Both the position numbers and the translations under genes were made by a program. The notes below the pieces were generated by a model that worked only from the letters and a program-made list of their open reading frames with translations, searched no databases and had not been told where the DNA came from. 64,000 bases of DNA from Nitrospirae bacterium JdFR-86 (GTDB lineage Bacteria > Nitrospirota > Thermodesulfovibrionia > Thermodesulfovibrionales > JdFR-86): contig MTOV01000002.1 in the NCBI GenBank assembly GCA_002011815.1, positions 3,246 through 67,245 on the forward strand. The letters are read 5' to 3'. Of this stretch, positions 22,303-59,619 are shown in pieces; position 1 is the first letter of the stretch; every line of letters begins with the position of its first letter.

Positions 22303-22329
22303 CTCTTGTTTTTAAAACTCCATGTTTTG

Positions 22330-25182: not shown

Positions 25183-25200
25183 TAGGGAGCCCTCCTAACT

Positions 25201-25830
25201 CTACGAGTCATTGATCGTTGCCTCAAATTTTAATATCTCTTCTATATGAATGATAGAGATAAACCTATCTCCCAGGACTGCAACTCCATCTATAAATTTT
25301 GTCTCCTTTTCTGTCAGATGAGCAGGCGGTTCATGTATGTCACTGGCAGGGACCCTTATCACACTCATACTTCTGTCCACCAGCACACCTATTGACCCTT
25401 TCGGTCCTTTAAGTATCACTATCTTTTTTTTACCCTGCCCGTTACTGTCGCTGATAAAAAGCCTTTTTTTGAGGTCAACTACAGGGATTATCTTTCCCCT
25501 GAGAGAAGTAATTCCGAGCACAAATGGGTCTGTCTTGGGAACTCTGGTTATTCTCTGCAGTCTGAGTATTTCCTCGACATCAGAGACTCTGAATGCATAA
25601 TCTTCCTTTGACAATTTAAATGCCAGAAGCTCAATTATCTCTCCTGCCTCTTCTATTTTAGCATCCAGATTATCCGGAGGTTTCTCGGTCTTTGTTTCCG
25701 GCTCTGTGTGTCTGGGGAGAATATCAGCTTTTGACTGACGTGACTCTCTATCCTTGTCTGTCAAGGATTCCCTAATCTTGGTCTGTGCTTTAACGTCTTT
25801 TAGCTTTTTCCTTATTTTGGCTATATCCAT
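25201..25830 (-). CDS. cheW: CheW-like coupling protein with a charged N-terminal extension of about 75 aa
   Basis: The CheW domain is ELLAFKLSKEDYAFRVSDVEEI...GITSLRGKIIPVVDLKKR. I prefer the start at MDIAKIRKK (25830) over the upstream ATG at 25896. Confidence 0.8.
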   Translation of the reverse strand: MDIAKIRKKLKDVKAQTKIRESLTDKDRESRQSKADILPRHTEPETKTEKPPDNLDAKIEEAGEIIELLAFKLSKEDYAFRVSDVEEILRLQRITRVPKTDPFVLGITSLRGKIIPVVDLKKRLFISDSNGQGKKKIVILKGPKGSIGVLVDRSMSVIRVPASDIHEPPAHLTEKETKFIDGVAVLGDRFISIIHIEEILKFEATINDS

Positions 25831-25933
25831 AAACCTACTTTTCGTGGAAAAACCTACTAATTTTCTCACAAAACGACAAAAAATGTAAAGTTGCATTGAC
25901 TAACATGGGCAATAGATATTATCTTTAAACACC

Positions 25934-42930: not shown

Positions 42931-43749
42931 TCAATTCTGTCTGTATTCGTGCAGGCACAATTCTCTTGAAGCGGCATCCACAAGGGATTCATCTATTATT
43001 TTTCGTCCTTCTCCAAACCCTTCAAGCAGGGCTGCTGTAGCCAGACTGTTTATCACTCTGGGCACTCCGCCTGAATATCTGTAAATGGATTTAATTGCAC
43101 CGTCGGTAAAAAGGGCGTCCTGTCTGCCGGCTACCGAGAGTCTGTGCTCTATGTAGCCTTTTATTTCTTCTTCAGACAGTGCTCCGATATGGTAAAAAAG
43201 CCCTATTCTCTGCCTTAGCGGCTGGTAGACTTTATGGCCCATCCTTCTTCTCAGATCAGTCTGCCCTACAAGGATAAGGCTAAGGAGATTTGTGTCATCG
43301 AGCTGGAAATTCGTAAGAAGCCTTATTTCCTCGAATGTCTCTTTCCTGGGGATAAGCTGTGCTTCGTCTATGATTATGACAGGTGTAATGCCGGCCTCGT
43401 AGTCTTCATAAACCTTTTCGTGTATGGCATCAAGAAGGCTGTCTTTGATGTTCCGCTGTATGTCTATTTCAAAGCGTTTTGCCACCACTCTGAGAAACTG
43501 TGCAGGAGTCAATCTGGGATTAAGTATAAGTATTATTCTGTATTTTTCGTTAAGGGAATCCATGAGGGCTCTTGTGAGTGTAGTCTTTCCGCAGCCGACG
43601 TCTCCGGTAAGCATTACGATTTCTTTTTCCTCAACTGCATACTGGAGCCTTGCCAGTGCTTCCTCGTGAGCCCTGCTGAGATAAAGGAAGGTCGGGTCTG
43701 GTGTCTTACTGAAAGGTTTTGTTTTTAATCCGTAGAACTCCTCATACAT
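42931..43749 (-). CDS. ExeA/GspA/MshM-like AAA ATPase
   Basis: 272 aa. The N-terminus FYGLKTKPFSKTPDPTFLY, Walker A GDVGCGKTT and Walker B VIIIDEAQ are present. The start overlaps the cheA stop by 8 nt. Confidence 0.75.
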   Translation of the reverse strand: MYEEFYGLKTKPFSKTPDPTFLYLSRAHEEALARLQYAVEEKEIVMLTGDVGCGKTTLTRALMDSLNEKYRIILILNPRLTPAQFLRVVAKRFEIDIQRNIKDSLLDAIHEKVYEDYEAGITPVIIIDEAQLIPRKETFEEIRLLTNFQLDDTNLLSLILVGQTDLRRRMGHKVYQPLRQRIGLFYHIGALSEEEIKGYIEHRLSVAGRQDALFTDGAIKSIYRYSGGVPRVINSLATAALLEGFGEGRKIIDESLVDAASRELCLHEYRQN

Positions 43750-45766
43750 GCACTGACCCTTTTCTCATCAATGTTCCTTCTATAATGGATTCCACATCAA
43801 GCACAAGGGTAACTTCGTGTTTACCTATCTCGGCTGCACCTGCAAAGTCCCTGATGCCCTTGAAATAATCCCCAAGGGATTTTACAACCACTTCGTGCTG
43901 ACCAACGATGTCATCAACGAGAAGTCCCATTCTTCTTTCACCAAAGCCGACTACTACTATAAAAGCCTTACCTGTAACATTGTCTGTGAGTTTAAATATA
44001 TCTTTCAGGCTTGTTACAGGCAGCATCTCACCTCTTAAGTTATAAACCATTCTGTTTTCTATAGTCTGCATTGCATCTTCCTGCAGGGTCAGAATCTCTG
44101 ATATGGAGGACAAAGGCACTGCAAAGACCTCTTTACCTGCTTTTACCATAAGTGCCTTTATTATAGCGAGCGTTATCGGAAGAGTAAGCGTAACAGTAGT
44201 GCCTATGTCTTTCTCGCTTACTATATCTACAAAGCCCCCGAGGACGGAAAGCCTATCTTTGACTATATCCAGTCCAACACCTCTTCCTGAAACCTCACTT
44301 ACGGTATCCTTTGTGCTGAAGCCCGGTGTAAAGATAAGCTCCAGAAGTTCCTTATCGTGCACTTCCTCATCTGCCTTGATTATGCCTCTTTCCACTGCCT
44401 TCTGTCTTATCTTTTCGGTATTTATTCCACCACCGTCGTCTTTTACTTCTATAACGACATGGTTACCCCATTGTGATGCCCTTAATGTAACTGTTCCTTC
44501 CTCTTTCTTGCCCTTGGCTTTTCTTTCTTCGGCAGGCTCTATACCGTGGTCTATGGCGTTACGCACGATATGCACAAGAGGGTCTATCACCTCTTCTGCA
44601 ATATATTTGTCTATCTCTGTATCCTCTCCGAACATTTCAAAATTAATCTTTTTGCCGACATCCCTTGAATGTCTTCTGATTACCTGTGCGAGTCTTCCAA
44701 ATATCTGTCCGATGGGCACCATTCTTATTTCAAGCACCTGTTCCTGAAGTTCCGCAAGTTTTCTTTGCAGTGTCTGAGTTATCTTATACATGTCTATAAC
44801 AAGAGGGGTATGTCCGTATGCCTCAGCCATCTCAGTCCAGATTCTTTTAACCGCACCCCTTGCAAGTGTAAGTTCGGCAATAGTACTAAGGACTCTATCG
44901 AGTTTTTCTATATCAACCCTTACTGTTGTAGTCGTTGTCTTTAAGGAAGGCTCTGCCAGCTGAGGGGGTCTTTCCGGTGGTTTGCCCGGGACAGGTTTTG
45001 GCTCAACAGCAGGTTTCGGCTCAACAGCAGGCTTTGGTTCAACAGCAGATTTTGGCTCAACGAGTGTATGAATCTCGAACTTCAGTGTTTCTTCAAGCTC
45101 TTTTAGAGGGTGAGAGCTGCCGAACATCAGATTGAAGCCTATGGAATCTTCAGGCAGTGCCTCAGAAACAGGCATTGTGGAAAGGAGTTCGCCGATGGAT
45201 TTTATCTTCCCCCTTACCTCCTCAAGCATCTTATCGAATTCGGTAAAAGGGAAAACAGCTTTTAAAATATATATACCTTTTCCTTCCTTCAGGTTGGTTT
45301 TCAGCCGGTGTTCTTCATACTCTGACAGAACCTTTAAAATTGACTCATCAATGACTCCTTCAAGACTTTGGGCTTCGCCTGCCTTGCTGATGGACTCTCT
45401 AAAGGCCTGTATTTCAGCCAGATAACCTGACACATCTGTCTGCCTTTTCTCTTTCACACCGTCAACGAGATATCTCAGCAAATCGATGTTTTTAAACAGA
45501 AAGCTTATGACATCGTCAGAGACAGCAATTTTGCCGAGGCGGATTTCATCAAGAAGGGACTCCACTGCATGGCTGAGGTCTGTTATACCCTGATGCCCGA
45601 AAAGTCCTGCAGTGCCTTTCAGGGTGTGTATGGCACGAAAGAGTGCGTTTAAAGAGTCAGGGTCTACGCCTTCTTTATATGTATCCTGGATTACAAGCAG
45701 CAGGCTTCCAGCTTCTTCAAGGATTTCTTCGGCTTCTGCGACAAACTCTTTCTCGGAAGATTTCAT
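43742..45766 (-). CDS. cheA: chemotaxis histidine kinase CheA
   Basis: 674 aa. It has the Hpt motif HTLKGTAGLFG, a dimerisation region, an H-ATPase domain (NAIDHGIE, DDGGGI, GRGVGLD) and a CheW-like C-terminus. Confidence 0.9.
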   Translation of the reverse strand: MKSSEKEFVAEAEEILEEAGSLLLVIQDTYKEGVDPDSLNALFRAIHTLKGTAGLFGHQGITDLSHAVESLLDEIRLGKIAVSDDVISFLFKNIDLLRYLVDGVKEKRQTDVSGYLAEIQAFRESISKAGEAQSLEGVIDESILKVLSEYEEHRLKTNLKEGKGIYILKAVFPFTEFDKMLEEVRGKIKSIGELLSTMPVSEALPEDSIGFNLMFGSSHPLKELEETLKFEIHTLVEPKSAVEPKPAVEPKPAVEPKPVPGKPPERPPQLAEPSLKTTTTTVRVDIEKLDRVLSTIAELTLARGAVKRIWTEMAEAYGHTPLVIDMYKITQTLQRKLAELQEQVLEIRMVPIGQIFGRLAQVIRRHSRDVGKKINFEMFGEDTEIDKYIAEEVIDPLVHIVRNAIDHGIEPAEERKAKGKKEEGTVTLRASQWGNHVVIEVKDDGGGINTEKIRQKAVERGIIKADEEVHDKELLELIFTPGFSTKDTVSEVSGRGVGLDIVKDRLSVLGGFVDIVSEKDIGTTVTLTLPITLAIIKALMVKAGKEVFAVPLSSISEILTLQEDAMQTIENRMVYNLRGEMLPVTSLKDIFKLTDNVTGKAFIVVVGFGERRMGLLVDDIVGQHEVVVKSLGDYFKGIRDFAGAAEIGKHEVTLVLDVESIIEGTLMRKGSVHV
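44994..45061. repeat. 18-bp tandem repeat x3.8 inside cheA (encodes the VEPKPA linker repeats)
   Basis: The units are ggttttggctcaacagca / ggtttcggctcaacagca / ggctttggttcaacagca / gattttggctcaac. They translate as KPAVEPKPAVEPKPAVEPKP. Confidence 0.9.
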
Positions 45767-46131
45767 AACTTAAGCAGGCTGCTTATTGTCTTTTGCAACT
45801 CTTCTGGTTGAAAAGGTTTTGTGATATATCCGTCTGCGCCAAGTGTCATGCCCCTTTTCTTGTCTTCTTCGCTTTTCTCAGTAGTGACTATAAGCATGGG
45901 GATGTGGCTGTAGCGGGGGTCTTTCTTTACAAAATTTATAAGCTCCAAACCATTTATATCAGGCATATTTATGTCTGTTATTATTAAGTCAAACTTATAG
46001 GCAGGAAGTTGTCTCAGCGCTTCAAACCCTGTAGAAGCTTCCACAATCTCGATTTCACCCAGCTCCTCCAAGATTGACCTCATCATGGCTCTGGTCGTTG
46101 AGGAATCCTCAACTATAAGTATATACTTCAT
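45763..46131 (-). CDS. cheY: CheY-like single-domain response regulator
   Basis: 122 aa with ILIVEDS, LIITDINMPDING and ITKPF. An AGGA Shine-Dalgarno is present. The stop overlaps the cheA start by 4 nt. Confidence 0.85.
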   Translation of the reverse strand: MKYILIVEDSSTTRAMMRSILEELGEIEIVEASTGFEALRQLPAYKFDLIITDINMPDINGLELINFVKKDPRYSHIPMLIVTTEKSEEDKKRGMTLGADGYITKPFQPEELQKTISSLLKL

Positions 46132-46445: not shown

Positions 46446-46817
46446 GTGCCTGGTGAATATATTCCATCAGAGTATTTACCTGTACTTATTTTTATGCTGA
46501 TCGCCGGGGCGTTCGGTCTCGGGGCGTTAATAGTCGGTTCTATCTTCAGACCCCGGAGACCTTATGCGGAGAAGCTCACCCCTTACGAATCAGGCAACCC
46601 ACCTGTCGGAGAACCCAGATACAGATTTTCCGTAAAGTTCTATATCATAGCAATGCTCTTTGTCATATTCGATGTTGAAGCGGTGTTTTTGTACCCGTGG
46701 GCTGTAGTGTTTGAAAAGATAGGGCTTTACGCCTTTATAGAGATGATAATATTCATAGTTATTCTGTTTGCAGGCTATATTTACGCATGGCGGAAAGACG
46801 CCTTTAAATGGGACTAG
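46446..46817 (+). CDS. nuoA: NADH-quinone oxidoreductase subunit A
   Basis: 123 aa with 3 TM helices and the conserved region KLTPYESG...FDVEAVFLYPWA. The start is GTG, so its position is uncertain. Confidence 0.85.
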   Translation: MPGEYIPSEYLPVLIFMLIAGAFGLGALIVGSIFRPRRPYAEKLTPYESGNPPVGEPRYRFSVKFYIIAMLFVIFDVEAVFLYPWAVVFEKIGLYAFIEMIIFIVILFAGYIYAWRKDAFKWD

Positions 46818-46833
46818 AAGGAGGTGATGGCAG

Positions 46834-47352
46834 ATGGTCATAGACACAGTTGGTGTTGTTGAAGTAGAAAAAGGACTCAAGATAATCCCTGGTGCAAGCA
46901 CAATCATAGCGACGATAGACAAGATAGTCAACTGGGGCAGACTGTCTTCGCTTTGGCCAATGACATTCGGTCTTGCTTGATGCGCTATAGAGATGATGAC
47001 GACGGGTTCGTCACACTATGATCTTGACAGGTTTGGAGTTATATTCAGGGGCTCGCCCAGGCAGGCGGACTTCATGATAGTCGCCGGCACCGTAACGAAG
47101 AAGATGGCGCCCATTGTAAGGCGCGTATATGACCAGATGCCAGAGCCGAGATATGTAATATCCATGGGCAGTTGCGCCTGTTCAGGCGGAATATTCAATA
47201 CATACAGCACAGTGCAGGGCTGTGACAGTTTTCTACCTGTGGATATTTATATTCCAGGATGTCCGCCAAGACCTGAAGCACTTCTGGAAGGAATACTAAA
47301 ACTTCAGGATAAAATCAGGAAGGAGCAGTTCCGGTGGAGCCGCTTCAGATAG
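46834..47352 (+). CDS. nuoB: NADH-quinone oxidoreductase subunit B, with in-frame TGA at codon 49 (candidate selenocysteine; alternatively sequencing error or pseudogene)
   Basis: Own translation from ATG 46834 (GAAGGAGG Shine-Dalgarno at 46817..46824) gives ...[16 protein letters not shown][TGA][11 protein letters not shown]..., in the same frame as ORF 46993..47352. The rest is a full-length NuoB ([31 protein letters not shown]). Confidence 0.8.
46987..47019 (+). other. imperfect hairpin 7 nt downstream of the nuoB TGA (SECIS-like geometry)
   Basis: The lower stem is ATAG/CTAT, followed by an internal loop. The upper stem TGACGA/TCGTCA (46997..47002 / 47008..47013) is perfect over 6 bp. 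The apical loop is CGGGT. Confidence 0.4.
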
Positions 47353-47873
47353 CAGAAAAACTCAGAGAGAAGTTCCCTGAAGAAGTCATCTCGATAGATG
47401 AGTTCAGGGGACAGGTATCTGTTGTCATAAAGAAAGACAGAATACTCGATATTGCAAGATACCTGTACGATGAACCAGAATTAGACTTTGATTATCTGAG
47501 AGACCTTTGCGGTGTAGACTATCTTGGCAAGAAAGAGCCGAGGTTTGAAGTCGTATATCACCTTTATTCCATAAAGCACAGGCATATGATCAGGCTGAAG
47601 GCACAGGTTCCTGAAAACGACTGCACTATTCACAGTGTAATGCCTGTGTGGATAGGAGCTAACTGGCATGAGAGGGAATGCTTTGACATGTTTGGAATAG
47701 TGTTCAAGGGGCATCCTGACCTTAGAAGGATACTCATGCCGGAGGACTGGGAAGGTCATCCGTTAAGAAAGGACTATCCGGTAAAAGGACCTCCACCGGA
47801 AAAGGAATGGGAAGGGTTTAAAGAGGTTCTGGAGAAAGCAGAACGACTCAAGGAGTTTGAATGGAACAAATAA
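47334..47873 (+). CDS. nuoC: NADH-quinone oxidoreductase subunit C
   Basis: 179 aa with the NuoC/30-kDa subunit core (CGVDYL...FEVVYHLYS...[21 protein letters not shown]). The start is GTG and overlaps the nuoB end. Confidence 0.9.
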
Positions 47874-49066
47874 GGGACGAAGCTGCACCGCTTAAGACAA
47901 AAGAGCTCACTGTAAGCATGGGTCCGCAGCATCCTGCGACCCATGGAGTCTTAAGGCTCGTTTTAGACCTCGACGGCGAGACTGTTGTCAAGTGCACCCC
48001 TTATGTCGGCTATCTGCACAGGGGTGTGGAAAAGCTGGCGGAAAACAGAACATATCTGTCTGCCCTACCCCTTTCGGACAGACTGGATTACATCTCCTCG
48101 ATGGCAAACAATGTCGGATATGTAGTGGCTGTCGAAAGGCTGTTCGGAATCGAGCCCCCGGAAAGAGCAAAATTCATAAGAACAATAGTCTCAGAGATGA
48201 CCAGAATATCCAGCCACATAATATGGGTAGCCACACACGCACTGGACATCGGCGCAATGACCGTATTCCTTTATTCATTCAGGGAAAGAGAGTGGCTCCT
48301 TGACCTCTTCGAGATGCTCTGCGGTGCAAGACTCACGGTAAGCTATCCGAGAATCGGCGGAGTAAGAAACGACGTATCGCAGGAGTTTCTTGACAGCCTT
48401 TATAAATTCACAGAGGAATTCCCAAAAAGGATAGAAGAATATGAAACCCTTATAGACCAGAACCGCATATGGTTAAAGAGAACAAAGGGAATAGGGGTAA
48501 TCTCAGCAGAAGAAGCCATAAACTGGGGACTTACAGGTCCGATGCTCAGAGGCTCTGGAATACCTTACGATGTAAGGAAATTTGAGCCTTACGACGCATA
48601 CGACAAGGTGGAGTTTGAAGTCCCGGTAGGCAAAAACGGCGATGTATATGACAGGTATCGCTGCAGGATGCTCGAACTCAGGCAGTCAAACAGCATCATA
48701 AAGCAGTGTATAGAGAAACTGCCACCGGGTCCTATTATGGCGCCTGATGCTCCGAAATTCACACTGCCGCCAAAGGACAGGGTAATGAAGGATATGGAAT
48801 CCCTGATACATCATTTTGTTCTGATAACAAAGGGACCACTAACAGCACCTAAAGGTGAAATATACTCGGCAGTGGAGGTTCCGAAAGGAGAGCTGGGATT
48901 CTACTTTGTAAGCGACGGCACTGGAAAACCCTACAGGATGAGATTAAGGGCACCTTCGTTTGTTCATGCATCTGTGTTGCCAAGGCTCTGTGAGGGCTCT
49001 CTTGTAGCAGACGTTATAGCAAACATAGGCACAATAGACATTGTTCTTGGAGAATGCGACAGATGA
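47861..49066 (+). CDS. nuoD: NADH-quinone oxidoreductase subunit D
   Basis: 401 aa with [24 protein letters not shown] and a C-terminal DIVLGECDR. Confidence 0.95.
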
Positions 49067-49509
49067 AGGAACTCGATACGATAAAAGAAAAATATCCAAC
49101 TACAAGGGCTGCAATTCTTCCTGCTCTTTACATTGCGCAGGAAAAATTCGGATGGCTTTCGCCAGAGGCGATTGAGGAAGTTTCTTCCACGCTGAACGTG
49201 CCGAAAGCACTTGTAAGAGGAGTATCCACATTCTATGCAATGTATAAACATAAGCCTATGGGCAGGCATCTTATACAGCTTTGCACGAATGTCTCGTGCA
49301 TGATATTTGGTGCAGAAACTCTTCTGGAACTACTGAAGAATAAATATGGTCTTGAACCCGGAGGCACAACTGAAGACGGAAGGTTTTCACTTGTAATCAT
49401 GGAATGCATTGGTGCATGCGACAGAGCACCTGCAATGCTTGTAAACAATGATTTTCATAGTAACTTAGACGACAATAACATAACAGAGATACTGGAGAAG
49501 TATAAATAA
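49054..49509 (+). CDS. nuoE: NADH-quinone oxidoreductase subunit E (2Fe-2S)
   Basis: 151 aa with Cys ligands in LCTNVSC and [10 protein letters not shown]. Confidence 0.9.
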
Positions 49510-49511
49510 GA

Positions 49512-50783
49512 GTGGAGAGATATTTACTAAGAAACATAGAAAACGCAAATTCTGCTGACATAGAAGAATACGAAAAAGCCGGCGGCTACCAGAGCCTGAA
49601 AAAGGCACTTTCGATGGAGCCGAAGGCTATCATAGAAGAAGTGAAGAAATCCGGTCTTCGCGGCAGAGGCGGTGCCGGCTTCCCCACAGGAATGAAATGG
49701 ACGTTCGCATCCGCAGACCCGAAATTCCCGAAATACCTAATCTGCAACGCTGACGAAGGCGAACCCGGAACATTTAAAGACAGACCCATACTTGAGAAAA
49801 ACCCTCACCTGCTAATAGAAGGGATGATTATATCAGCCCATGCGCTTCAGGCCCGATACGGCTATATCTATTTAAGAGGCGAATACCCGCAGGCACGAGA
49901 GATTCTCGAAAACGCCATCAAACAGGCATATGAAAAAGGATATCTTGGGGACAATGTTCTTGGCAGTGATACAGGGTTTCACCTTTCTGTTCATCAGGGA
50001 GCAGGGGCATACATATGCGGAGAGGAGACAGCACTTATAGAGTCCCTTGAAGGCAAGCGTGGACAGCCGAGGATTAAGCCGCCCTTCCCTGTCAATGTCG
50101 GAGTATTCTCCATGCCCACAGTGGTAAACAATGTAGAGACGCTTTCCAACATTCCATACATCATTGAGATTGGAGCAGAGGCTTATTCAAAGATAGGAAG
50201 TCCTGATTGTCCTGGACCCAAGCTCTACTCAGTCAGCGGGCATGTGGAAAAACCCGGTGTTTACGAGCTTCCGATGGGCACTACCCTGAGGGAGATAATC
50301 TACACACATGCAGGCGGCATAAAAGGCGGAAAGAATCTAAAGGCAGTCATTCCAGGTGGAATATCTACACCTGTGCTACCTGCGGATAAGATAGACTGTC
50401 CGATGGATTTTGTCTCGATGCCAAAGCATGGAAGCATGCTTGGTTCAGGTGCAGTTATAGTCTTCGATGAAACGACATGCCTTGTGAAAGTATGCTGGAG
50501 GGCAATGAAATTCTTTGAGCACGAATCATGCGGTAAATGTACGCCGTGCAGGGAAGGCACCGGCTGGATGAGGTCTGTGCTTGAGCGTATAGAAAACGGT
50601 CAGGGTAAAGACGGAGATATAGACCTGCTGCTTGACATCGCAGGAAACATTGCAGGCAAGACGTTCTGCCCGTTAGGCGACGGTGCAGCAGTGGTGACGA
50701 TGAACTTCATAAAGCATTTCAGAAATGAATTCGAAGAACATATTACAAATAAAGGATGTATTCAGGGGACTAAGACAGCATGA
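49512..50783 (+). CDS. nuoF: NADH-quinone oxidoreductase subunit F (FMN/NADH-binding)
   Basis: 423 aa with GLRGRGGAGFPTG, CNADEGEPGTFKDR and the 4Fe-4S ligands ESCGKCTPCREG. The start is GTG. Confidence 0.95.
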   Translation: MERYLLRNIENANSADIEEYEKAGGYQSLKKALSMEPKAIIEEVKKSGLRGRGGAGFPTGMKWTFASADPKFPKYLICNADEGEPGTFKDRPILEKNPHLLIEGMIISAHALQARYGYIYLRGEYPQAREILENAIKQAYEKGYLGDNVLGSDTGFHLSVHQGAGAYICGEETALIESLEGKRGQPRIKPPFPVNVGVFSMPTVVNNVETLSNIPYIIEIGAEAYSKIGSPDCPGPKLYSVSGHVEKPGVYELPMGTTLREIIYTHAGGIKGGKNLKAVIPGGISTPVLPADKIDCPMDFVSMPKHGSMLGSGAVIVFDETTCLVKVCWRAMKFFEHESCGKCTPCREGTGWMRSVLERIENGQGKDGDIDLLLDIAGNIAGKTFCPLGDGAAVVTMNFIKHFRNEFEEHITNKGCIQGTKTA

Positions 50784-53380
50784 TTACTATAACCATAAAC
50801 GGCAGACAGATAAAACTTGAAAAACCGGTTACCGTGCTTGAAGCGGCAAAGATGAACGGGATACACATCCCGCATTTCTGCCATCATCCGCTGCTTGAGC
50901 AGTGGGGCGGTTGCAGGATGTGCCTTGTTGAAGTTGAAAAGATGCCGAGGCTTCAGACCGCCTGCACACTGACTGTAACAGAAGGCATGGTCATAAGAAC
51001 AGAGTCTCCTGAGATAGCACGGGCAAGAAAAGCAGTTCTTGAATTTCTCCTGATAAATCATCCTCTTGAGTGTCCTGTCTGCGACAAGGCAGGTGAATGC
51101 AAACTGCAGGACTACACAATGCAGTATGGTCCTACGGCAGGCAGGTTCGAGGAAGGCAAAAGAAAGCATCCTGAAAGCCTTGACGACCCCATAATCGTAA
51201 GGAACATGGAAAGGTGCATAATGTGCACAAGATGCGTAAGGATGTGTGAGGGGGTTCAGGGTGCCCTGGCTATTGCAGTTACAGGAAGAAGCAGTAAATC
51301 GTTCGTAGAGCCGTTCTCAGGAGGCAGGTATAACTGCGAATACTGCGGAAACTGCCTCACTGTATGTCCTGTGGGCGCCATAATGTCAAGGCTTCACAGG
51401 TATAAATACAGACCGTGGCAGATGGAGCATGAAGTAAAGACCGTGTGCTCCTATTGTGGAGTCGGCTGTTCAATGTTCGTTCAGGTCAGAGAAGGCTCAA
51501 TAATGAGGACGATGCCGAAGATAGGACTTGGCGTCAATAAAGGGCTTCTCTGCAGCAGAGGACGCTTTGGATACGAATACGTAAGAAGCAACGAAAGGCT
51601 TACTACCCCTCTTGTAAGGAAAGATGGCAGTCTCAAGCCAGCCACATGGGATGAAGCACTAAGCCTTGTTGCACATAAACTGAAAAACATAATGGAAAGA
51701 TACGGCGGTGAATCCATTGCCGGTATTGCCTCAGGCAGATGCACAAACGAAGACAACTACCTGTTCCAGAAGCTGATGAGAGCCGGACTCCAGAGCAACA
51801 ACATTGACTCTATCTCCCGGATGGGATTTGTAGGTGCTCAGAAATTCTTCGAGGGAATGCTGGGGCCAGGAGTTACTGCAAACCTAATCTCAGGAATAGT
51901 GCACTCTGACGCAGTGCTCGTGGTCGGAGGAGACCCGACACAAATCAACCCTATCCTGGGCATTCAGGTAAGAGGCGCATTCAGAAAAGGCACAAAGGTA
52001 ATAACCATAGGCTATACACCGGGTCTTAAGTGGCACAGAAGCACCGGGATTATGCCTATGCCGCAGACCGAAGGAGCAGTCCTTGCCGGACTGCTTTCCG
52101 GTGTTCTTAAAAACAAAACCCTTTCCGGAGAAAACAAAGAACTCGAAGACACTATAAGTAAATTTGACTTGCCTTCTCCGGATGAGATTAAAAACATCTG
52201 CAACATAAGCATTGACGAACTGACACAAGCCGTAACCGCATTGGCTGAAAGCTCATCTGCAATCATAATTGTCGGTCGCGATATCGTAACCCAGCCTGAC
52301 GGCGGCAACAATCTCCTGCTGCTGGGAGCACTGGCGTATGTCCTGGATGCAAGGATTTATCTTATGTCTGAAAGACCCAATGAACAGGGTCTTATAGACA
52401 TGGGTTGCATTCCGGACATGCTTCCTGGAGAAAGACCCCTTGCGATGGGAGGTTCCAGAAAAAGGTGCGAAGACATCTGGGGTGCTCCAGTGCCTGCAAA
52501 CGAAGGCTTAACACTGATGGAATTCATCGAAGGGGCACACTCAGGCTCTATAAAGGCAATGTATGTAATGGGAGAAAACCCGGCTTACAATCTCCCTGAC
52601 AGCCGTTTCGTAAAGGAAGCACTAGGCAAACTCGAATTCCTCGTGGTTCAGGACATTGTCATGACCGAGACTGCAGAGATGGCAGACGTTGTCCTGCCTG
52701 CAACAAGCTGGGCGGAAAAAGAAGGCACTTACGTAAATCTTGAAAGAAGAATCCAGCGCTTAAGACAAGCGATAGACGGTCAGGGAATGGATGACTGGAA
52801 GATAATCGCTGAAATCGGCAAGAAGATGGGGCTCAGAATGCCTTATAACTCAGCAGAAGACGTCATGGCTGAGATTGCAAAGGTCTCGCCGCTTTATTCA
52901 GGTCTTTCATACGAGGACATAGAACAGGGCACTGACCTCTGGCCATACAAAGGCGAGCCTTTAAGGCATATATCAATCGAGGATTTAAAACTCGAGGAGC
53001 TTTATAAAAAGCCGTCTGCACCTGAAGCCAAGCCTTTTTATCTGGTAATAGAAAAGCCTTTGTTCCACTCAGGGACACTAAGCAGACATTCCAATGCCCT
53101 AAACAGCATTTATCCAGAGCCTGTGGTTAGAATCAGTCCAAAGACAGCAGAAAAGCTATCGCTAAAAGACGGCGATATGGTGGAAGTGTCTTCAAGCAAA
53201 GGCAAAATCGCACTGCCTGTAAAAATAGACAGCAATCTTTTGGAATCAATGATTTTGCTTACGAACAACTTCAGGGATAAAGGGGCTATGGAACTTCTGG
53301 GGTATAAGATAGAGCCTGTAACAAAGGCTCCTGTTCTGGAAAGTGCTGAAGTTACAATACAAAAGGCAGGTGGCGTATGA
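50780..53380 (+). CDS. nuoG: NADH-quinone oxidoreductase subunit G
   Basis: 866 aa. It has an N-terminal 2Fe-2S region, HPLECPVCDKAGEC, CIMCTRCVRMC and CGNCLTVCPVGA, then a molybdopterin-oxidoreductase-like body. Confidence 0.9.
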   Translation: MITITINGRQIKLEKPVTVLEAAKMNGIHIPHFCHHPLLEQWGGCRMCLVEVEKMPRLQTACTLTVTEGMVIRTESPEIARARKAVLEFLLINHPLECPVCDKAGECKLQDYTMQYGPTAGRFEEGKRKHPESLDDPIIVRNMERCIMCTRCVRMCEGVQGALAIAVTGRSSKSFVEPFSGGRYNCEYCGNCLTVCPVGAIMSRLHRYKYRPWQMEHEVKTVCSYCGVGCSMFVQVREGSIMRTMPKIGLGVNKGLLCSRGRFGYEYVRSNERLTTPLVRKDGSLKPATWDEALSLVAHKLKNIMERYGGESIAGIASGRCTNEDNYLFQKLMRAGLQSNNIDSISRMGFVGAQKFFEGMLGPGVTANLISGIVHSDAVLVVGGDPTQINPILGIQVRGAFRKGTKVITIGYTPGLKWHRSTGIMPMPQTEGAVLAGLLSGVLKNKTLSGENKELEDTISKFDLPSPDEIKNICNISIDELTQAVTALAESSSAIIIVGRDIVTQPDGGNNLLLLGALAYVLDARIYLMSERPNEQGLIDMGCIPDMLPGERPLAMGGSRKRCEDIWGAPVPANEGLTLMEFIEGAHSGSIKAMYVMGENPAYNLPDSRFVKEALGKLEFLVVQDIVMTETAEMADVVLPATSWAEKEGTYVNLERRIQRLRQAIDGQGMDDWKIIAEIGKKMGLRMPYNSAEDVMAEIAKVSPLYSGLSYEDIEQGTDLWPYKGEPLRHISIEDLKLEELYKKPSAPEAKPFYLVIEKPLFHSGTLSRHSNALNSIYPEPVVRISPKTAEKLSLKDGDMVEVSSSKGKIALPVKIDSNLLESMILLTNNFRDKGAMELLGYKIEPVTKAPVLESAEVTIQKAGGV

Positions 53381-54390
53381 GTTTCTTTGAGACTATATTT
53401 GCTCCCGGGGCAGTAGATATTATGTTGAACATAGGGATTATCCTTATCAAGATTGCTGTCGTCGTTGGAATCGTAATGGCACATGTTGCATATGCAACGT
53501 ACTTTGAGAGGAAAGTCATCGGGCACATGCAGGTAAGGCTCGGACCTATGAGAGTAGGATTTCACGGACTTCTTCAGCCGATAGCAGACTTCACAAAGCT
53601 CTTCTTCAAGGAAGACATTATTCCGGCAAATGCAGACAAGCCGATATTCTATGTAGCCCCGGTGATATCACTGCTTGCAGCACTTTCGTCACTTGCAGTA
53701 ATACCGTTTTTTGAAGGGTTTGTGGTCGCAAACCTGAATATTGGGATTTTGTTCATACTTGCGATGTCTTCTCTTGGAGCATACGGTATTGTGATGTCAG
53801 GATGGGCATCGAACTCGAAGTACTCTTTCCTCGGCGGACTGAGGTCATCCGCACAGGTGATAAGCTATGAAGTTGCAATGGGGTTAAGTCTTGTAGGCGT
53901 TATGATAATGGCAGGCTCTATGAACCTTACGGATATAGTAAAGGCGCAGGAGGCATATCCGCTTAAGGCATTTATCTTTCCGCAGTTCCTTGGATTCTTC
54001 GTCTTTATAGTTGCCGCATTTGCAGAGACAAACAGAACCCCGTTCGACCTGCCTGAGGCAGAAAGCGAGCTCGTAGCCGGTTATTTCGTGGAATACAGCG
54101 GTATGAGGTTCGCCCTGTTCTATGCAGCAGAATACATCGGAATGATAATAATGGCATGTCTTGCATCAATATGCTTCTTAGGCGGCTGGAACGGACCTTT
54201 TGAGATACCCTATGTGCCGTTTGCATGGCTTTTGATAAAGGTGTATTTCTTCATATTCCTCTACTACTGGGTAAGGGCGACTGTTCCAAGATACAGATAC
54301 GACCAGTTAATGGGTCTTGGCTGGAAGGTTTTAATACCTCTTGCTCTTTTAAACATAACAATAACAGGACTTATAAAAATACTGGTGTGA
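53377..54390 (+). CDS. nuoH: NADH-quinone oxidoreductase subunit H
   Basis: 337 aa and polytopic, with ERKVIGHMQVRLGPMRVG and ETNRTPFDLPEAESELVAG. Confidence 0.95.
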   Translation: MSFFETIFAPGAVDIMLNIGIILIKIAVVVGIVMAHVAYATYFERKVIGHMQVRLGPMRVGFHGLLQPIADFTKLFFKEDIIPANADKPIFYVAPVISLLAALSSLAVIPFFEGFVVANLNIGILFILAMSSLGAYGIVMSGWASNSKYSFLGGLRSSAQVISYEVAMGLSLVGVMIMAGSMNLTDIVKAQEAYPLKAFIFPQFLGFFVFIVAAFAETNRTPFDLPEAESELVAGYFVEYSGMRFALFYAAEYIGMIIMACLASICFLGGWNGPFEIPYVPFAWLLIKVYFFIFLYYWVRATVPRYRYDQLMGLGWKVLIPLALLNITITGLIKILV

Positions 54391-54391
54391 G

Positions 54392-54943
54392 GTGCATGCA
54401 GTGAACGTCAAAAAGATAATCAAGACGGTATTTTTTACAGAGATAATCAAGGGAATGGCTCTGACCCTGAAGTCAATGTTTACACATGCGGTTACAAGGC
54501 AGTATCCAGAGGAGAAAAGGCCTGCAATGCCTGGCTTCAGGGGAATGCATGCATTCGTCCGTGACCCTGAGACAGGCAGGGAAAAATGCATCGCCTGCGG
54601 ACTTTGCGCGGCAATATGCCCTTCGCAGTGCATATACATCTACACCTCTGAGGGACCTGACAACAAGAAAGTCGCTGAAAGATACGAGATTGAGGTTCTG
54701 AGGTGTATATATTGTGCCTTCTGTGTTGAAGCGTGTCCAGTAGGCGCTATAGCGCTTACCGAGCACTTTGAATACTCTGATTACTCAAGAGATGCCCTTT
54801 ATATGGATAAAGAAAGGCTGCTTTCAAACTGGGATAAATACATGGCAGGACCCAGGGGTGAAGAGTACTTTAAAAAATTCTGGCATCCGGTCAGTGCTGA
54901 TTTTCAGGCATATGACGGACAGCCAGTGTTTAAAAGGGGATAG
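54392..54943 (+). CDS. nuoI: NADH-quinone oxidoreductase subunit I (2x4Fe-4S)
   Basis: 183 aa with CIACGLCAAICP and CIYCAFCVEACP. The start is GTG at 54392 or 54401. Confidence 0.9.
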   Translation: MHAVNVKKIIKTVFFTEIIKGMALTLKSMFTHAVTRQYPEEKRPAMPGFRGMHAFVRDPETGREKCIACGLCAAICPSQCIYIYTSEGPDNKKVAERYEIEVLRCIYCAFCVEACPVGAIALTEHFEYSDYSRDALYMDKERLLSNWDKYMAGPRGEEYFKKFWHPVSADFQAYDGQPVFKRG

Positions 54944-54945
54944 AG

Positions 54946-55455
54946 ATGTTACCTGAATTATTCTTCGGTTACTTTGCGGCAGCGATAATCATATTTTCAC
55001 TGATTGTTGTAACAAGACGGAATCCGGTGCACAGCGTGCTCTTCATGCTCATTCTGTTCTTCCACATTGCTGCTCTCTATCTGTTTCTTGATGCCGAGTT
55101 TCTTGCTGCCATACAGGTAATAGTCTATGCTGGTGCTATACTCGTGCTCTTCCTGTTTGTTGTTCTCCTATTGAATCTCAAGGAAGAAACACTAATACGA
55201 AGATATATCAATCAATGGCCCATGGGTGTGGTATTTGCTGTAGGGCTGTTTATATTAATGTTTATTTCAGTGAGATCGTTTTTGGCAGGACCTAAAGGGG
55301 AAATCAGCAGTGTTCTTACAGGACAGAGCAATGTCACAAATCTCGGCACGGTGCTTTACACAGAGTATCTGTTTCCGTTTGAGATAGCCTCTCTGGTTCT
55401 GCTTGTGGCAATTATAGGCGCAATCGTACTGGCTAAAAAACGACTTAAATCCTGA
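54946..55455 (+). CDS. nuoJ: NADH-quinone oxidoreductase subunit J
   Basis: 169 aa and polytopic, in the expected position in the operon. It has a NuoJ-like VVTRRNPVHSVLFMLILF. Confidence 0.85.
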   Translation: MLPELFFGYFAAAIIIFSLIVVTRRNPVHSVLFMLILFFHIAALYLFLDAEFLAAIQVIVYAGAILVLFLFVVLLLNLKEETLIRRYINQWPMGVVFAVGLFILMFISVRSFLAGPKGEISSVLTGQSNVTNLGTVLYTEYLFPFEIASLVLLVAIIGAIVLAKKRLKS

Positions 55456-55464
55456 GGAGAGCTT

Positions 55465-55767
55465 ATGGTTCCTTTACAGTGGTATATATGGCTTGCAACT
55501 GCGGTTTTTGCAATAGGGGTTTTAGGGTTTCTTACAAGAAGAAACATAATAATCATGTTCATGTCCATTGAGCTGATGCTAAATGCAGTAAACATAAGTC
55601 TGGTTTCTTTCAGTCATTATCTTCAGGATATGAGAGGACAGATACTGAGCTTGTTTGTCATCACAGTGGCTGCGGCAGAGGCAGCCATAGGGCTTGCAAT
55701 AATCATCGCCCTATTCCGGAACAAGGCAACTGCCCATGTTGACGAAATGGCAGAAACGAAAGGATAG
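55465..55767 (+). CDS. nuoK: NADH-quinone oxidoreductase subunit K
   Basis: 100 aa with 3 TM helices and [11 protein letters not shown]...[11 protein letters not shown]. Confidence 0.9.
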
Positions 55768-55772
55768 GTGCT

Positions 55773-57704
55773 ATGAAAAGTTATCAGTTAATACCGTTTT
55801 TACCGCTTGCAGCATTTGTAATTAACATTCTGCTCGGAAAGCGCATAATCAAGGACAAGGCGCACTGGATTGCCGTCCCTGCGGTTTTGGCTTCATGGGT
55901 TATCTCTGTCTTCACGCTGTTTGATGTCATAGGAGGCAAGGTCTTCAACGAAGACCTTTATACATGGATTATATCGGACGGGTTTATAGTGTCAGTAGGC
56001 TTTCTTGTAGACCAGCTTACTGCGGTAATGCTGATAGTTGTCACAACAGTGAGCAGCCTTGTGCATATCTACTCTGTCGGGTATATGCACGGTGACAAAG
56101 GCTACTACAGGTTCTTCTCTTACCTGAGTCTGTTTACCTTCTCGATGCTCATGCTCGTAATGGCGAATAATTTCCTCCAGCTTTATTTCGGCTGGGAAGC
56201 CGTGGGATTATGCTCCTACTTCCTGATTGGTTTCTGGTATGAAAAGAAGTCGGCATCTGATGCAGGCAAGAAGGCGTTTATAGTAAACAGGTTCGGTGAT
56301 TTCGGTTTTGGACTCGGCGTAATAATGATATTCCTTACGTTCGGCACTATCCATTACGAGCCTGTCTTTAATGCAGTCAATGGTATCGTTGGACAGAGCA
56401 TCAATATCCTAGGCTATGACATCAGTCTTGTAACGCTGATAGCACTCCTGCTTTTCTGCGGTGCAGTGGGCAAATCAGCACAGATTCCGCTTCATGTATG
56501 GCTTCCTGATGCAATGGAAGGTCCGACACCTGTCAGTGCGTTGATACACGCTGCAACCATGGTTACTGCAGGTGTGTTCATGGTCGCAAGATGCAATCCG
56601 ATTTTCAATCTTTCACATGTAGCCATGAACGTTGTTGCAGTAACCGGTGCAGTCACTGCATTGTTTGCAGCCACGATTGCCCTTGTGCAGAACGATATAA
56701 AACGGATAATAGCCTACTCTACTATCAGCCAGCTTGGATACATGTTCCTTGCCTGCGGCGTGGGTGCATATGCAGCAGGAATATTCCATCTTTACACGCA
56801 TGCATTCTTCAAAGCCCTCCTGTTCCTTGGTGCCGGTAGTGTGATGCACGCTATGGCAGGAGAGCTTGACATACAGAAGATGGGCGGTCTTAAAAAGTAC
56901 ATGCCGTGGACATACTGGACGTTCCTGCTTGCCTCATTGAGCATTGCAGGAATTCCGGGATTTGCCGGCTTCTTCAGTAAGGATGAAATCCTCTGGCAGG
57001 CTTATGCATCAGGTCCGCTGGGCAAGATTGTCTGGTTCCTGGGTGCGGTGACAGCACTGCTTACTGCGTTCTATTCATTCAGGATAGTGTTCGTTGCATT
57101 CCATGGAAAATTCCGCGGCACACACGAGCAGGAACATCACCTGCACGAATCACCAAAAGTAATGACCCTGCCGCTTGCAATATTGGCAATAGGCGCAATC
57201 ATCTCAGGCTGGGTAGGCATACCACCGCTTATTGGAGAATTCCTCGGAATCGAGCACTCTGACAAATTCGGTGCGTTCCTTGCACCTGTGGTCGGACATC
57301 CCCACGCCGAAGGGACACACGGAGAAGAAATATTCGTAATGCTTCTGTCTATCCTGTTTGCAGTCGGTGGAATAATCACTGCATTCTTCATGTACATCAA
57401 GAGACCAGAGATACCAGTGCAACTCGGCGAAAGCATGAAAACCGCCTACAGGGTGCTCTGGAATAAATACTACGTGGATGAGCTTTATCATCTTATAATC
57501 GTAAGACCTACTTTCTGGGTTGCACAAAGCGTTATAGTAGGGGTAACAGACGGAAAGATTATAGAGGGCATAGTCAACGGTGTTCCAAGAGCAATTGGCG
57601 GGTTCAGCGAGATACTGAGAAGGGTGCAAACAGGGTTTGCGCACCATTATGCAGCAGTAATGGCACTGGGACTTCTAATTATTATGATATTCCTTATACT
57701 ATAA
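55773..57704 (+). CDS. nuoL: NADH-quinone oxidoreductase subunit L
   Basis: 643 aa, antiporter-like, with FGWEAVGLCSYFLIGFW and WLPDAMEGPTPVSALIHAATMV. Confidence 0.9.
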   Translation: MKSYQLIPFLPLAAFVINILLGKRIIKDKAHWIAVPAVLASWVISVFTLFDVIGGKVFNEDLYTWIISDGFIVSVGFLVDQLTAVMLIVVTTVSSLVHIYSVGYMHGDKGYYRFFSYLSLFTFSMLMLVMANNFLQLYFGWEAVGLCSYFLIGFWYEKKSASDAGKKAFIVNRFGDFGFGLGVIMIFLTFGTIHYEPVFNAVNGIVGQSINILGYDISLVTLIALLLFCGAVGKSAQIPLHVWLPDAMEGPTPVSALIHAATMVTAGVFMVARCNPIFNLSHVAMNVVAVTGAVTALFAATIALVQNDIKRIIAYSTISQLGYMFLACGVGAYAAGIFHLYTHAFFKALLFLGAGSVMHAMAGELDIQKMGGLKKYMPWTYWTFLLASLSIAGIPGFAGFFSKDEILWQAYASGPLGKIVWFLGAVTALLTAFYSFRIVFVAFHGKFRGTHEQEHHLHESPKVMTLPLAILAIGAIISGWVGIPPLIGEFLGIEHSDKFGAFLAPVVGHPHAEGTHGEEIFVMLLSILFAVGGIITAFFMYIKRPEIPVQLGESMKTAYRVLWNKYYVDELYHLIIVRPTFWVAQSVIVGVTDGKIIEGIVNGVPRAIGGFSEILRRVQTGFAHHYAAVMALGLLIIMIFLIL

Positions 57705-57723
57705 ACCTTAATTCGGGAGTGAT

Positions 57724-59250
57724 ATGGAACAGATGAATACATTAGGTTATCCAATATTAAGCTCAGTGATTTTTGTGCCTATTATCGGCGCTATTCTAAT
57801 GCTGCTAATAAAACGGACAAATGAATCTCTAATAAAATGGAGTGCGCTTTTCTTCAGCATCCTGACATTTATTCTTTCGCTCCCCTTGTTTACCAATTTC
57901 GATAAGAAAACCCATAAAATGCAGTTTGTTGAACACCACGAGTGGATACCTGCATGGAACATAAATTACAGTCTTGGGGTTGACGGTATAAGCGTGCTTT
58001 TTGTATTGCTTTCCACGCTGATTACTATCACATGCGTTCTTGTATCATGGAATTCCATAAAGACCAAGCTTAAGGAGTTCTACATTGCGCTTCTGCTTAT
58101 AGAAGGCGCGATGATAGGTGTCTTCTGCGCCCTGGATTTCTTCCTGTTTTACATCTTCTGGGAGGCAATGCTCATTCCTATGTTCATTCTCATAGGGGTA
58201 TGGGGAGGACCCAGAAGAGTATACGCAGCGATAAAGTTCTTCCTCTATACGCTTGTAGGAAGCGTGCTCATGCTTGTCGGAATAATAGTGCTGTATTTTT
58301 ATGGTGGAAAGACGTTTGATATCCTTAAGCTCTCAGTAATGAATTATCCTTATTCTATGCAGCTGTGGCTTTTCTGGGCGTTCTTTGCAGCCTTTGCAGT
58401 CAAAGTCCCGATGTTTCCTGTTCATACATGGCTTCCTGACGCACACACAGAGGCGCCGACAGCAGGCAGTGTCATACTTGCCGGCATTCTCATAAAGATG
58501 GGTGCATACGGTTTTCTGAGGTTTTCGCTTCCGTTCTTCCCTGATGCCTCAAAGGCAATGACCCCTGTGATGATGACCCTTTCGGTAATAGCCATAATCT
58601 ACGGTGCAGTGGTATGCCTTGCACAAACGGATTTGAAGAGGCTCATAGCCTACAGTTCAGTAAGCCACATGGGGTTTGTAACGCTCGGCATCTTTGCAAT
58701 GAACGTGAATGGTCTTGAAGGCGGAATACTACAGATGATAAACCACGGTATCGTCACAGGAGCGTTGTTCCTTTCAGTGGGAATAATCTATGACAGAACC
58801 CACTCAAGAGAGATTGCAGACTACGGAGGAGTAGCCACAGTGCTTCCTGTGTACGCTGCATTCTTTATGGTATTTACGCTTGCCTCAATAGGGCTTCCGG
58901 GAATGAACGGGTTTATCGGTGAGTTCCTTATAATCTTAGGCGGGTTTGCAGCAAAGAAATGGGCAGGTGTGCTTGCGGCAACAGGCATAATCATCGGCGC
59001 AGCTTATATGCTCTGGCTTTATCAGAGAGTGTTCTTTATGGAAGTCAACCCGAAAGTCCAAGGACTTTCCGATGTCAACCTGAGGGAGATAATAACCCTT
59101 CTTCCAATGGTCATACTCATATTCTGGATAGGTGTCTATCCGAACACATTTTTGAGCTTCATGCATGTCTCAGTGCAGCACCTGATTGACAGGCTGAACA
59201 TCGGCACCGCACCTGAGATGACACTGGCAAAACTGCTCTTCTTTAAATAA
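57724..59250 (+). CDS. nuoM: NADH-quinone oxidoreductase subunit M
   Basis: 508 aa. FWEAMLIPMFILIGVWGG and HTWLPDAHTEAPTAGSVILAGILIKMG are collinear with E. coli NuoM as I recall it. Confidence 0.9.
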   Translation: MEQMNTLGYPILSSVIFVPIIGAILMLLIKRTNESLIKWSALFFSILTFILSLPLFTNFDKKTHKMQFVEHHEWIPAWNINYSLGVDGISVLFVLLSTLITITCVLVSWNSIKTKLKEFYIALLLIEGAMIGVFCALDFFLFYIFWEAMLIPMFILIGVWGGPRRVYAAIKFFLYTLVGSVLMLVGIIVLYFYGGKTFDILKLSVMNYPYSMQLWLFWAFFAAFAVKVPMFPVHTWLPDAHTEAPTAGSVILAGILIKMGAYGFLRFSLPFFPDASKAMTPVMMTLSVIAIIYGAVVCLAQTDLKRLIAYSSVSHMGFVTLGIFAMNVNGLEGGILQMINHGIVTGALFLSVGIIYDRTHSREIADYGGVATVLPVYAAFFMVFTLASIGLPGMNGFIGEFLIILGGFAAKKWAGVLAATGIIIGAAYMLWLYQRVFFMEVNPKVQGLSDVNLREIITLLPMVILIFWIGVYPNTFLSFMHVSVQHLIDRLNIGTAPEMTLAKLLFFK

Positions 59251-59262
59251 TTTCGACCATTT

Positions 59263-59601
59263 AAAACCCCCTTTGAAAATTTCAGGTTCATGAAGGAGAC
59301 CGGAGGGTTAAAAATTTTTGCATGTCTGAGGTCGGCTCGACCGAGTTCTGCAAAAATTTACCGGAGGCCGACTGAATGAACCGCCCGGAAATTTTCATGG
59401 GGCGCCCTTTTTGCGCTACTTTTTGGGCGAGCAAAAAGTAGCAAGGGGTTTGGGACGGAGACCGACCAATACGTTTGAAGCACTCTTTAAAAGTGGCTGT
59501 GCCACCGAGCAAAAAGTAGCAAAAGGGTTTTGGAAATTTCAGGAGGTTGAAGCAACTCTGTGCGAAGACTCGCTTCGAGGCGAAGCGTTAAGAATTAATC
59601 C
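59263..59601 (+). repeat. structured intergenic repeat, copy D (one core unit plus a rearranged partial second unit)
   Basis: The core is collinear with copy C (AAACCCCCTTTGAAAATTTCAGG ... GCTACTTTTTG-GGCGAG-CAAAAAGTAGC). A truncated terminus GACCAATACG follows. Then come a second GAGCAAAAAGTAGCAA and GGAAATTTCAGG...GCGTTAAGAATTAAT. Confidence 0.8.
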
Positions 59602-59619
59602 ATAGAGGCAGCGATGCTG

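Follow-up and report, generated by a model that had tools for sequence, protein, structure and literature searches.

A probable selenocysteine ligand of iron-sulphur cluster N2 in the NuoB subunit of bacterial respiratory complex I

In a 64,000-nucleotide (nt) stretch of the genome of Nitrospirae bacterium JdFR-86 (contig MTOV01000002.1), referred to below as the window, the gene for NuoB, the subunit of respiratory complex I that carries iron-sulphur (Fe-S) cluster N2, contains an in-frame UGA at exactly the codon where a cysteine ligand of the cluster would be expected. This raises the question of whether nuoB is broken, whether it encodes two polypeptides, or whether the UGA is read as an amino acid and, if so, as which. 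We propose that it is a genuine selenocysteine (Sec) codon and that NuoB is a selenoprotein, a reading to which we assign a probability of about 0.9 from comparison of DNA and protein sequences. The preliminary description of the locus had suggested that Sec replaces the first N2-ligand cysteine and that a hairpin resembling a Sec insertion sequence (SECIS) follows the codon, and this suggestion is now supported by recurrence of the codon, pairing of Sec and Cys forms among homologues, covariation in the hairpin and its fit to the bacterial SECIS (bSECIS) model. More broadly, Sec-NuoB probably represents a widespread, uncatalogued family, in which Sec would ligate N2 in many anaerobic Nitrospirota (Thermodesulfovibrionia) and Desulfobacterota and in some Chloroflexota.

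With the UGA read as Sec49 (46978-46980), nuoB forms a single frame of 172 codons on the plus strand (46834-47352) that closes with a TAG at 47350-47352. Its ATG lies 16 nt beyond the stop of nuoA, which ends at 46817, and a Shine-Dalgarno sequence, GAAGGAGG, can be read at 46817-46824, 9 nt 5' of the start. Public gene calls and the listing of open reading frames (ORFs) both divide the gene into pieces of 48 and 119 amino acids (aa), and a split of this kind, with 48-51 aa followed by 119 aa, repeats itself in the gene calls of JGI, NCBI, ENA and Logan. An exact look-up of the full-length protein with X at codon 49 gave no match. When cysteine is placed at codon 49, NuoB scores 259.8 bits against NF005012 (cutoff 116) and 248.4 bits against TIGR01957 (cutoff 142.7), and it aligns end to end with the solved NDUFS7/PSST and Thermus Nqo6 chains (E = 1e-61 to 1e-67). 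In these alignments the TGA stands opposite the first C of FGLACCA[VI]EMM, the first cysteine of the tandem pair that ligates N2. All four ligand positions are found, with Sec only at the first: U49; C50, the second residue of the pair (46981-46983, from translation and alignment to the solved chains); and, placed by alignment, C114 in GSCA (47173-47175) and C143 in PGCPP (47260-47262). An extra cysteine stands beside the third ligand, in GSCACSGG (Cys114 and Cys116; 47173-47181), and is shared by the Sec-form NuoB of Thermodesulfatator autotrophicus; the Thermus Nqo6 sequence at this site is presumably GACASSGG.

Gene calls and annotation place nuoB in a 13-gene operon, nuoA-nuoM (46446-59250, plus strand), which includes the NADH module nuoEFG and in which nuoA, C, D, E, F, G, H, I, J, K, L and M accompany nuoB intact. 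A nuoN gene is not adjacent, none being found 3' of nuoM (57724-59250), and the locus thus holds 13 genes and not 14. The preliminary description had set the start of nuoB at ATG 46834, with a Shine-Dalgarno sequence and a normal NuoB N-terminus, had located the TGA exactly on the first tandem-cysteine codon of the N2 motif, and had taken the intact state of the other nuo genes as an argument against operon decay; direct reading and translation confirm the first of these points, alignment to the solved chains the second, and the intact nuoA-nuoM genes the third.

Downstream of the UGA, folding, comparative data and the criteria of the published model predict a bSECIS element at 46994-47015 (plus strand). 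Its upper stem of 6 base pairs (bp) is formed by UGACGA (46997-47002) and UCGUCA (47008-47013), the apical loop is CGGGU (47003-47007, 5 nt) with a G at loop position 2, and two lower pairs, 46994/47015 and 46995/47014, lie beneath a bulged A46996. The UGA is situated 16 nt 5' of the stem and is separated from the loop by a spacing of 22 nt. According to PMC13188914, the bSECIS consensus of Zhang and Gladyshev (2005) describes a loop of 3-9 nt, an upper stem of 4-16 bp, a G within the first two loop bases, a spacing of 16-37 nt from the UGA and a minimum free energy (MFE) of at most -7.5 kcal/mol. The hairpin in the window falls within each of these limits: its loop has 5 nt with a G at position 2, its upper stem has 6 bp, the spacing is 22 nt and the MFE is -10.4 kcal/mol. 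The perfect 6-bp stem and the CGGGT loop about 22 nt from the UGA that had been noted earlier are therefore real features of the sequence, and the likeness to a SECIS element held up when the model was applied. Searches of the whole window against Rfam at gathering thresholds matched no family, and permissive thresholds near the site brought up no SECIS family, only chance C/D-box matches to AUGAUGA.

The codon is not peculiar to this genome. GTDB representatives, one genome per species and 596 Gb in all, were scanned with the pattern TTYGGNYTNNNNTGATGYGCNNNNGARATG, which corresponds to F-G-L-x-TGA-C-A-x-E-M and for which about 4 chance matches are estimated from its information content. The scan, which with TGA fixed can find TGA forms only, returned at least 119 stretches, and 118 of those listed prove to be nuoB genes in which the TGA stands in frame at this codon. 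A conserved N-terminal ...NW[GAS]R..S.WP.TFGLA is common to them, the C-terminal part is complete with 123-138 residues, and their neighbours include nuoA, nuoC and nuoD in 112, 108 and 97 of the 118 listed loci, respectively. Hosts among the listed matches are mostly Nitrospirota/Thermodesulfovibrionales and Desulfobacterota sensu lato, the latter with Syntrophaceae, Thermodesulfobacteriota, Desulfobacterales, Syntrophorhabdus and Caldimicrobium; Chloroflexota are represented in the list by one metagenome-assembled genome (MAG) with two loci and by a second MAG. The listed matches also include a cultured isolate, Thermodesulfatator autotrophicus S606 (locus L094). The cultured Dissulfurispira thermophila (locus L229, BLAB01000001.1, 2.45 Mb) has a split nuoB as well, the 119-aa fragment of which (BCB97029.1) has been deposited as "hypothetical protein JZK55_19510". 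Comparison with related genomes, which the preliminary description had envisaged as a check, thus finds TGA at codon 49 in nuoB of at least 118 other species and Cys in close homologues. Three MAGs were observed to carry two separate Sec-type nuoB loci each (L047 and L077 in JACREW01, L037 and L114 in CAMTVO01, L010 and L090 in CAYQJS01); because both copies are of the Sec type, no decaying Sec duplicate accompanies a Cys copy in these MAGs.

This recurrence bears directly on the reading that the TGA arose through faulty base calling or assembly, or through a recent nonsense mutation, nuoB being a pseudogene in this organism. A TGA is a single substitution away from TGC or TGT, the hairpin taken by itself has no statistically supported stability, and gene callers do split nuoB; this reading had been put forward earlier as equally simple. 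However, a 21-kb region recurs with 100% identity, TGA included, in the JGI metagenome contig Ga0314848_000003 (555 kb) and in the independent Logan assembly of SRR3723048, and the same TGA occurs in the at least 118 other species and in many metagenomes. The nearest gathered relative of the window (L107) shows only 76.5% nucleotide identity over nuoA-D, and the TGA has therefore outlasted a long divergence. Moreover, both halves of nuoB are, to judge from their codons, under purifying selection, residues being conserved while third codon positions vary freely, and the operon is intact. A pseudogene was rejected in view of a lone TGA with no accompanying frameshift, common to so many species and flanked by two halves that are both under such selection. 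Given recurrence and conservation, we consider error or recent mutation exceedingly improbable, and the assessment of it as equally simple does not stand.

If the gene is intact, the UGA could still be a stop. In a true split gene, translation would end at the UGA and restart at AUG-AUG, yielding polypeptides of 48 and 119 aa and an N2 held by three cysteines, with the hairpin serving pausing or re-initiation. Two in-frame ATG codons do follow 12 nt 3' of the UGA and databases store the fragments as separate proteins, but the ATG-ATG is the universally conserved EMM motif, which is found in Cys forms also. In a simple split gene any stop would do. For a sample unbiased as to the type of stop, four clusters of truncated 119-aa proteins were picked by protein similarity and their DNA was retrieved afterwards; all 18 contigs (7 distinct contexts) carry TGA at codon 49, and TAA or TAG occurs in none of them. 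The 119-aa fragment cluster P0123 is indexed in 34 assembly-collection blocks, and 10 of the 10 contigs listed for it carry TGA. That the stop in this sample is TGA only, never TAA or TAG, speaks against a split gene, as does its position, which is always precisely at the metal-ligand cysteine codon. In addition, Yarrowia N2 becomes less stable when the strained tandem pair loses one of its ligands (PMC8042128).

The hairpin provides a further distinction. We compared 124 TGA forms, which comprise 49 distinct sequences over a 30-nt region, with 88 Cys forms; the stem register moves by 1-2 nt among clades, and pairs were counted per sequence and not by a covariance model. A hairpin lies directly 3' of GARATGAT in 124 of 124 TGA forms, and its apical loop starts at +24 to +29 (the U of UGA being 1) in 121 of them. 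One or other of the two leading loop bases is a G in 123 of the 124, compared with 57 of the 88 Cys forms, in which structures are scattered in position. The TGA forms include 34 distinct arm/loop/arm versions, and six stem positions each show four types of Watson-Crick pair; clade-specific stems include UGACGA/UCGUCA, GCUGCU/AGCAGC, GGCCGC/GCGGCC (with a bulged A) and UUGCCA/UGGCAA as well as GCUACU/AGUAGU, GAUGGC/GCCAUC and CGGCCG/CGGCCG. SECIS-specific features of this kind, a loop G that is almost invariant and a fixed spacing, are difficult to reconcile with a split gene, and we regard stop and restart at this site as very unlikely.

Codon usage separates the two forms even where the peptide is the same. 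When synonymous codons were permuted within each gene, the native TGA forms proved more stable than their recoded versions: the mean z was -1.26 (124 TGA forms), as against +0.17 (88 Cys forms), with a Mann-Whitney p of 8e-26 that overstates the independence of sequences related by phylogeny. Among genes encoding MMTTGSSH, 45 distinct Sec-type DNAs were set against 7 Cys-type DNAs. Third-position entropy in the 45 Sec DNAs is 0.00 bits at codons +7, +8, +10 and +11 (ACG ACG. TCG TCA), with 0.76 bits at loop codon +9 and 1.3-2.0 bits at flanking four-fold codons, while the Cys-type DNAs (n = 7) show 1.0-1.95 bits at the same four stem codons. A perfect stem is formed in 45 of 45 Sec-type and in 2 of 7 Cys-type genes of this set. 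Taken together, these comparisons indicate that a SECIS-type hairpin is under selection only where the codon is UGA.

Sec-form and Cys-form NuoB proteins are closely interleaved. A protein search with the Cys-substituted NuoB returned, as its 120 best full-length homologues, proteins of 76-88% identity, with CC at the tandem position in 119 and GC in 1. A metagenome scan of the CAIEMMTTG context that allowed TGA, TGC or TGT gave 102 TGC, 8 TGT and 10 TGA. Over the core of the protein, the nearest Sec form is 94.9% and the nearest Cys form 93.5% identical to the NuoB of the window. The Sec forms fall into at least 10 clusters at 80% identity, and a parsimony count on a rough tree of 332 NuoB sequences, built by the unweighted pair group method with arithmetic mean (UPGMA), requires at least 22 switches between Sec and Cys. 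Such fine-scale interleaving, as it appears in these alignments, is the usual signature of a selenoprotein family, and we consider repeated gain or loss of Sec in NuoB likely, the rough tree implying about 20 switches or more. Two Cys-type loci, L205 (Ga0187771_10230025, TGT) and L243 (ERZ4756920, TGC at 3148-3150), retain the exact Sec-type hairpin ATGACGACGGGATCGTCA and this retention makes it appear that they changed from Sec to Cys recently and keep the SECIS as a fossil.

A UGA that is translated need not specify Sec. TGA is the commonest ordinary stop in the window, where it closes 26 of 59 long reading frames, and a reassigned code, with TGA as Trp or Gly, is excluded because the codon acts as a normal stop elsewhere in the window. 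Other pairs of ORFs joined by a TGA in the window are only adjacent-gene junctions and off-frame noise. Alternatively, a near-cognate tRNA could insert a standard amino acid (Cys, Trp or Arg) at the UGA, with stimulation by the hairpin and no involvement of selenium. Structure-stimulated UGA readthrough occurs in other systems, and no sel gene was found in the part of this genome that was searched, the window and about 13 kb of flank. Yet a TGC would supply Cys at no cost, as it does in many close relatives, the geometry and loop G of the hairpin fit the bSECIS model for SelB binding, and the host taxa are documented users of Sec. Thermodesulfatator indicus has SelA, SelB and SelD (PMC3760896), and the recently characterised selenoprotein MccSep is concentrated, with Sec forms, in Desulfobacterota and in the Nitrospirota class Thermodesulfovibrionia (PMC13510729), which are the lineages that carry Sec-nuoB. 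Readthrough as a standard amino acid is thus, in our estimation, a poor explanation with little chance of being correct.

The case for Sec also has to be weighed against several observations that speak against it, to which the phylogenetic non-independence mentioned above belongs. The fold of the single sequence, compared with dinucleotide shuffles, has a z of +0.94 and hence no extra stability, and the window alone therefore leaves the question of Sec undecided; that the hairpin exceeds chance is, at the level of sequence, established by the comparative data only. When strict bSECIS criteria are applied to the MFE structure of the whole region, just 56% of the Sec forms pass, compared with 10% of the Cys forms and 13% of recoded controls. 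The 64-kb window and about 13 kb of flank yielded no selA, selB, selC or selD, and neither did any gathered nuoB locus. Pfam annotation of the larger ORFs of the window and of the extended flanks revealed no sel genes, ARAGORN detected no tRNA-Sec in the window or in any gathered nuoB locus, and tblastn of the gathered loci with an approximate E. coli SelD query gave no match. Finally, two loci depart from the pattern. In a close relative, at L242 (GCA_016194315.1, JACQBV010000210.1; protein P0008), the Sec position is occupied by GGA (Gly) at 1451-1453 although the hairpin is fully kept; GGA is one base from TGA, and the contig, which is 2 kb long, may have been misread here, or the ligand may have been lost in this variant. 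A Candidatus Udaeobacter MAG (L074, DATBDJ010000013.1), the sole match from Verrucomicrobiota among those listed, has TGA at the same codon but a weaker, atypical hairpin with the loop GCCU, and it stands apart by taxonomy as well as by structure; it may be genuinely of the Sec type, or else a pseudogene or the product of faulty binning.

If the UGA at codon 49 is indeed decoded as selenocysteine during translation, the hairpin, acting as a bSECIS, would bring SelB with Sec-tRNA(Sec) to a ribosome paused at the UGA, and by analogy with the established bacterial Sec pathway SelB-GTP would bind the apical loop and upper stem (46997-47013). The product would be a normal NuoB of 172 residues with Sec49 in place of the first tandem cysteine. 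From homology, the ligands of N2, the terminal [4Fe-4S] cluster, would then be the selenolate of Sec49 and the thiolates of Cys50, Cys114 and Cys143. The last of the electron carriers in complex I, N2 adjoins the quinone-binding tyrosine and donates electrons to quinone, and its unusually high, pH-dependent potential and strained tandem ligation have long been debated in relation to the coupling mechanism (PMC8042128). In Yarrowia the residue equivalent to Sec49 is C85, which comes first in the strained tandem pair, is the more mobile of the two and lies near the quinone-binding tyrosine (PMC8042128). One may speculate that a selenolate at this position alters the potential or pKa of N2, eases strain through a longer Fe-Se bond, or protects the cluster.

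In most respects the protein is a canonical NuoB/Nqo6/PSST (NDUFS7), with which it shares the PF01058 fold family, the pattern of four ligands, the FGLA-xC-AxEMM motif and a position within a nuoA-M operon. What differs is the first tandem position, which is Cys in every matched solved or characterised complex I and is encoded here by UGA. The recoding itself would be conventional: as in known bacterial selenoprotein genes such as E. coli fdhF, the UGA is aligned with a Cys codon, is immediately followed by a bSECIS and recurs as TGA in orthologues, and it is the host family, NuoB, that is different. A parallel is Sec-NifD of Thermodesulfatator indicus, Desulforudis and Desulfotomaculum, in which Sec takes the place of a cysteine that ligates the nitrogenase P-cluster (PMC3760896). 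Sec-NifD and Sec-NuoB have in common a predicted Sec in place of a Fe-S ligand Cys, the genus Thermodesulfatator, and the combination of UGA, bSECIS and Cys homologues, whereas the protein and pathway are different, the cluster is [8Fe-7S] in NifD and [4Fe-4S] in NuoB, and Sec-NuoB is far more widespread in the sample analysed, with at least 118 species as opposed to 3. The [NiFeSe] hydrogenases are selenoenzymes built on the same ancestral module of small and large subunits, and they too are found in anaerobic sulfate reducers; their Sec, however, is a nickel ligand in the large subunit, the homologue of NuoD, while that of NuoB would be a Fe-S ligand in the homologue of the small subunit. 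Identification of the protein as a [NiFeSe] hydrogenase small subunit was considered and rejected (NF045520, 23.7 bits against a cutoff of 470).

Sec-NuoB would, we think it fairly likely, be the first selenoprotein subunit of respiratory complex I. The 119 prokaryotic selenoprotein families and subfamilies inventoried in PMC13188914 (May 2026) do not include NuoB/PF01058, and the sole entry there named "NADH:ubiquinone oxidoreductase" is an NqrE-like family, PF02508, which is unrelated to NuoB. NCBIfam release 20 contains no selenoprotein-specific NuoB model, and NuoB is mentioned neither in the BSepDB main text nor in the main text or supplements of deep-Sep. No open-access paper that links nuoB with selenocysteine was found, an earlier description outside open access being possible.

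Recurrent gain and loss of Sec, if true, implies that a selenolate gives N2 a selectable property, be it potential, pKa, relieved strain or robustness. A Sec ligand would also place a naturally occurring selenium probe in the core of complex I, making the tuning of N2 by its ligand sphere open to experiment; redox titration of Sec and Cys orthologues would be possible, as would 77Se electron paramagnetic resonance (EPR) and electron nuclear double resonance (ENDOR) spectroscopy, and cultured hosts exist in Dissulfurispira thermophila and Thermodesulfatator autotrophicus. Furthermore, a core respiratory enzyme would join the selenoproteome, and the energy metabolism of widespread subsurface sulfur-cycling bacteria would acquire a requirement for selenium. 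As regards annotation, hundreds of genomes and MAGs currently have a nuoB that is split or truncated, or that is entered as hypothetical, and metabolic reconstructions may therefore score complex I as incomplete in such organisms.

The surroundings of the nuo operon in the window have features of their own. Directly 5' of it and divergent from it lies a CheA-CheY pair (43742-46131), one of two groups of chemotaxis genes; the other, at 18355-25896, encodes CheB, CheR, a 662-aa protein composed entirely of HEAT repeats, CheW, and a 950-aa methyl-accepting chemotaxis protein (MCP) fused to a phosphonate-type periplasmic binding domain. On the other side, in the region 57724-59620, nuoM is followed by a 370-nt non-coding stretch and then by convergent genes on the minus strand. 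The repeats in this spacer (59269-59552) matched no Rfam family; they consist of a 24-nt direct repeat, CGAGCAAAAAGTAGCAA(G/A)GGG, at 59428 and 59506, a second repeat pair at 59272 and 59529, and an 18-nt inverted repeat at 59269-59286 and 59385-59402.

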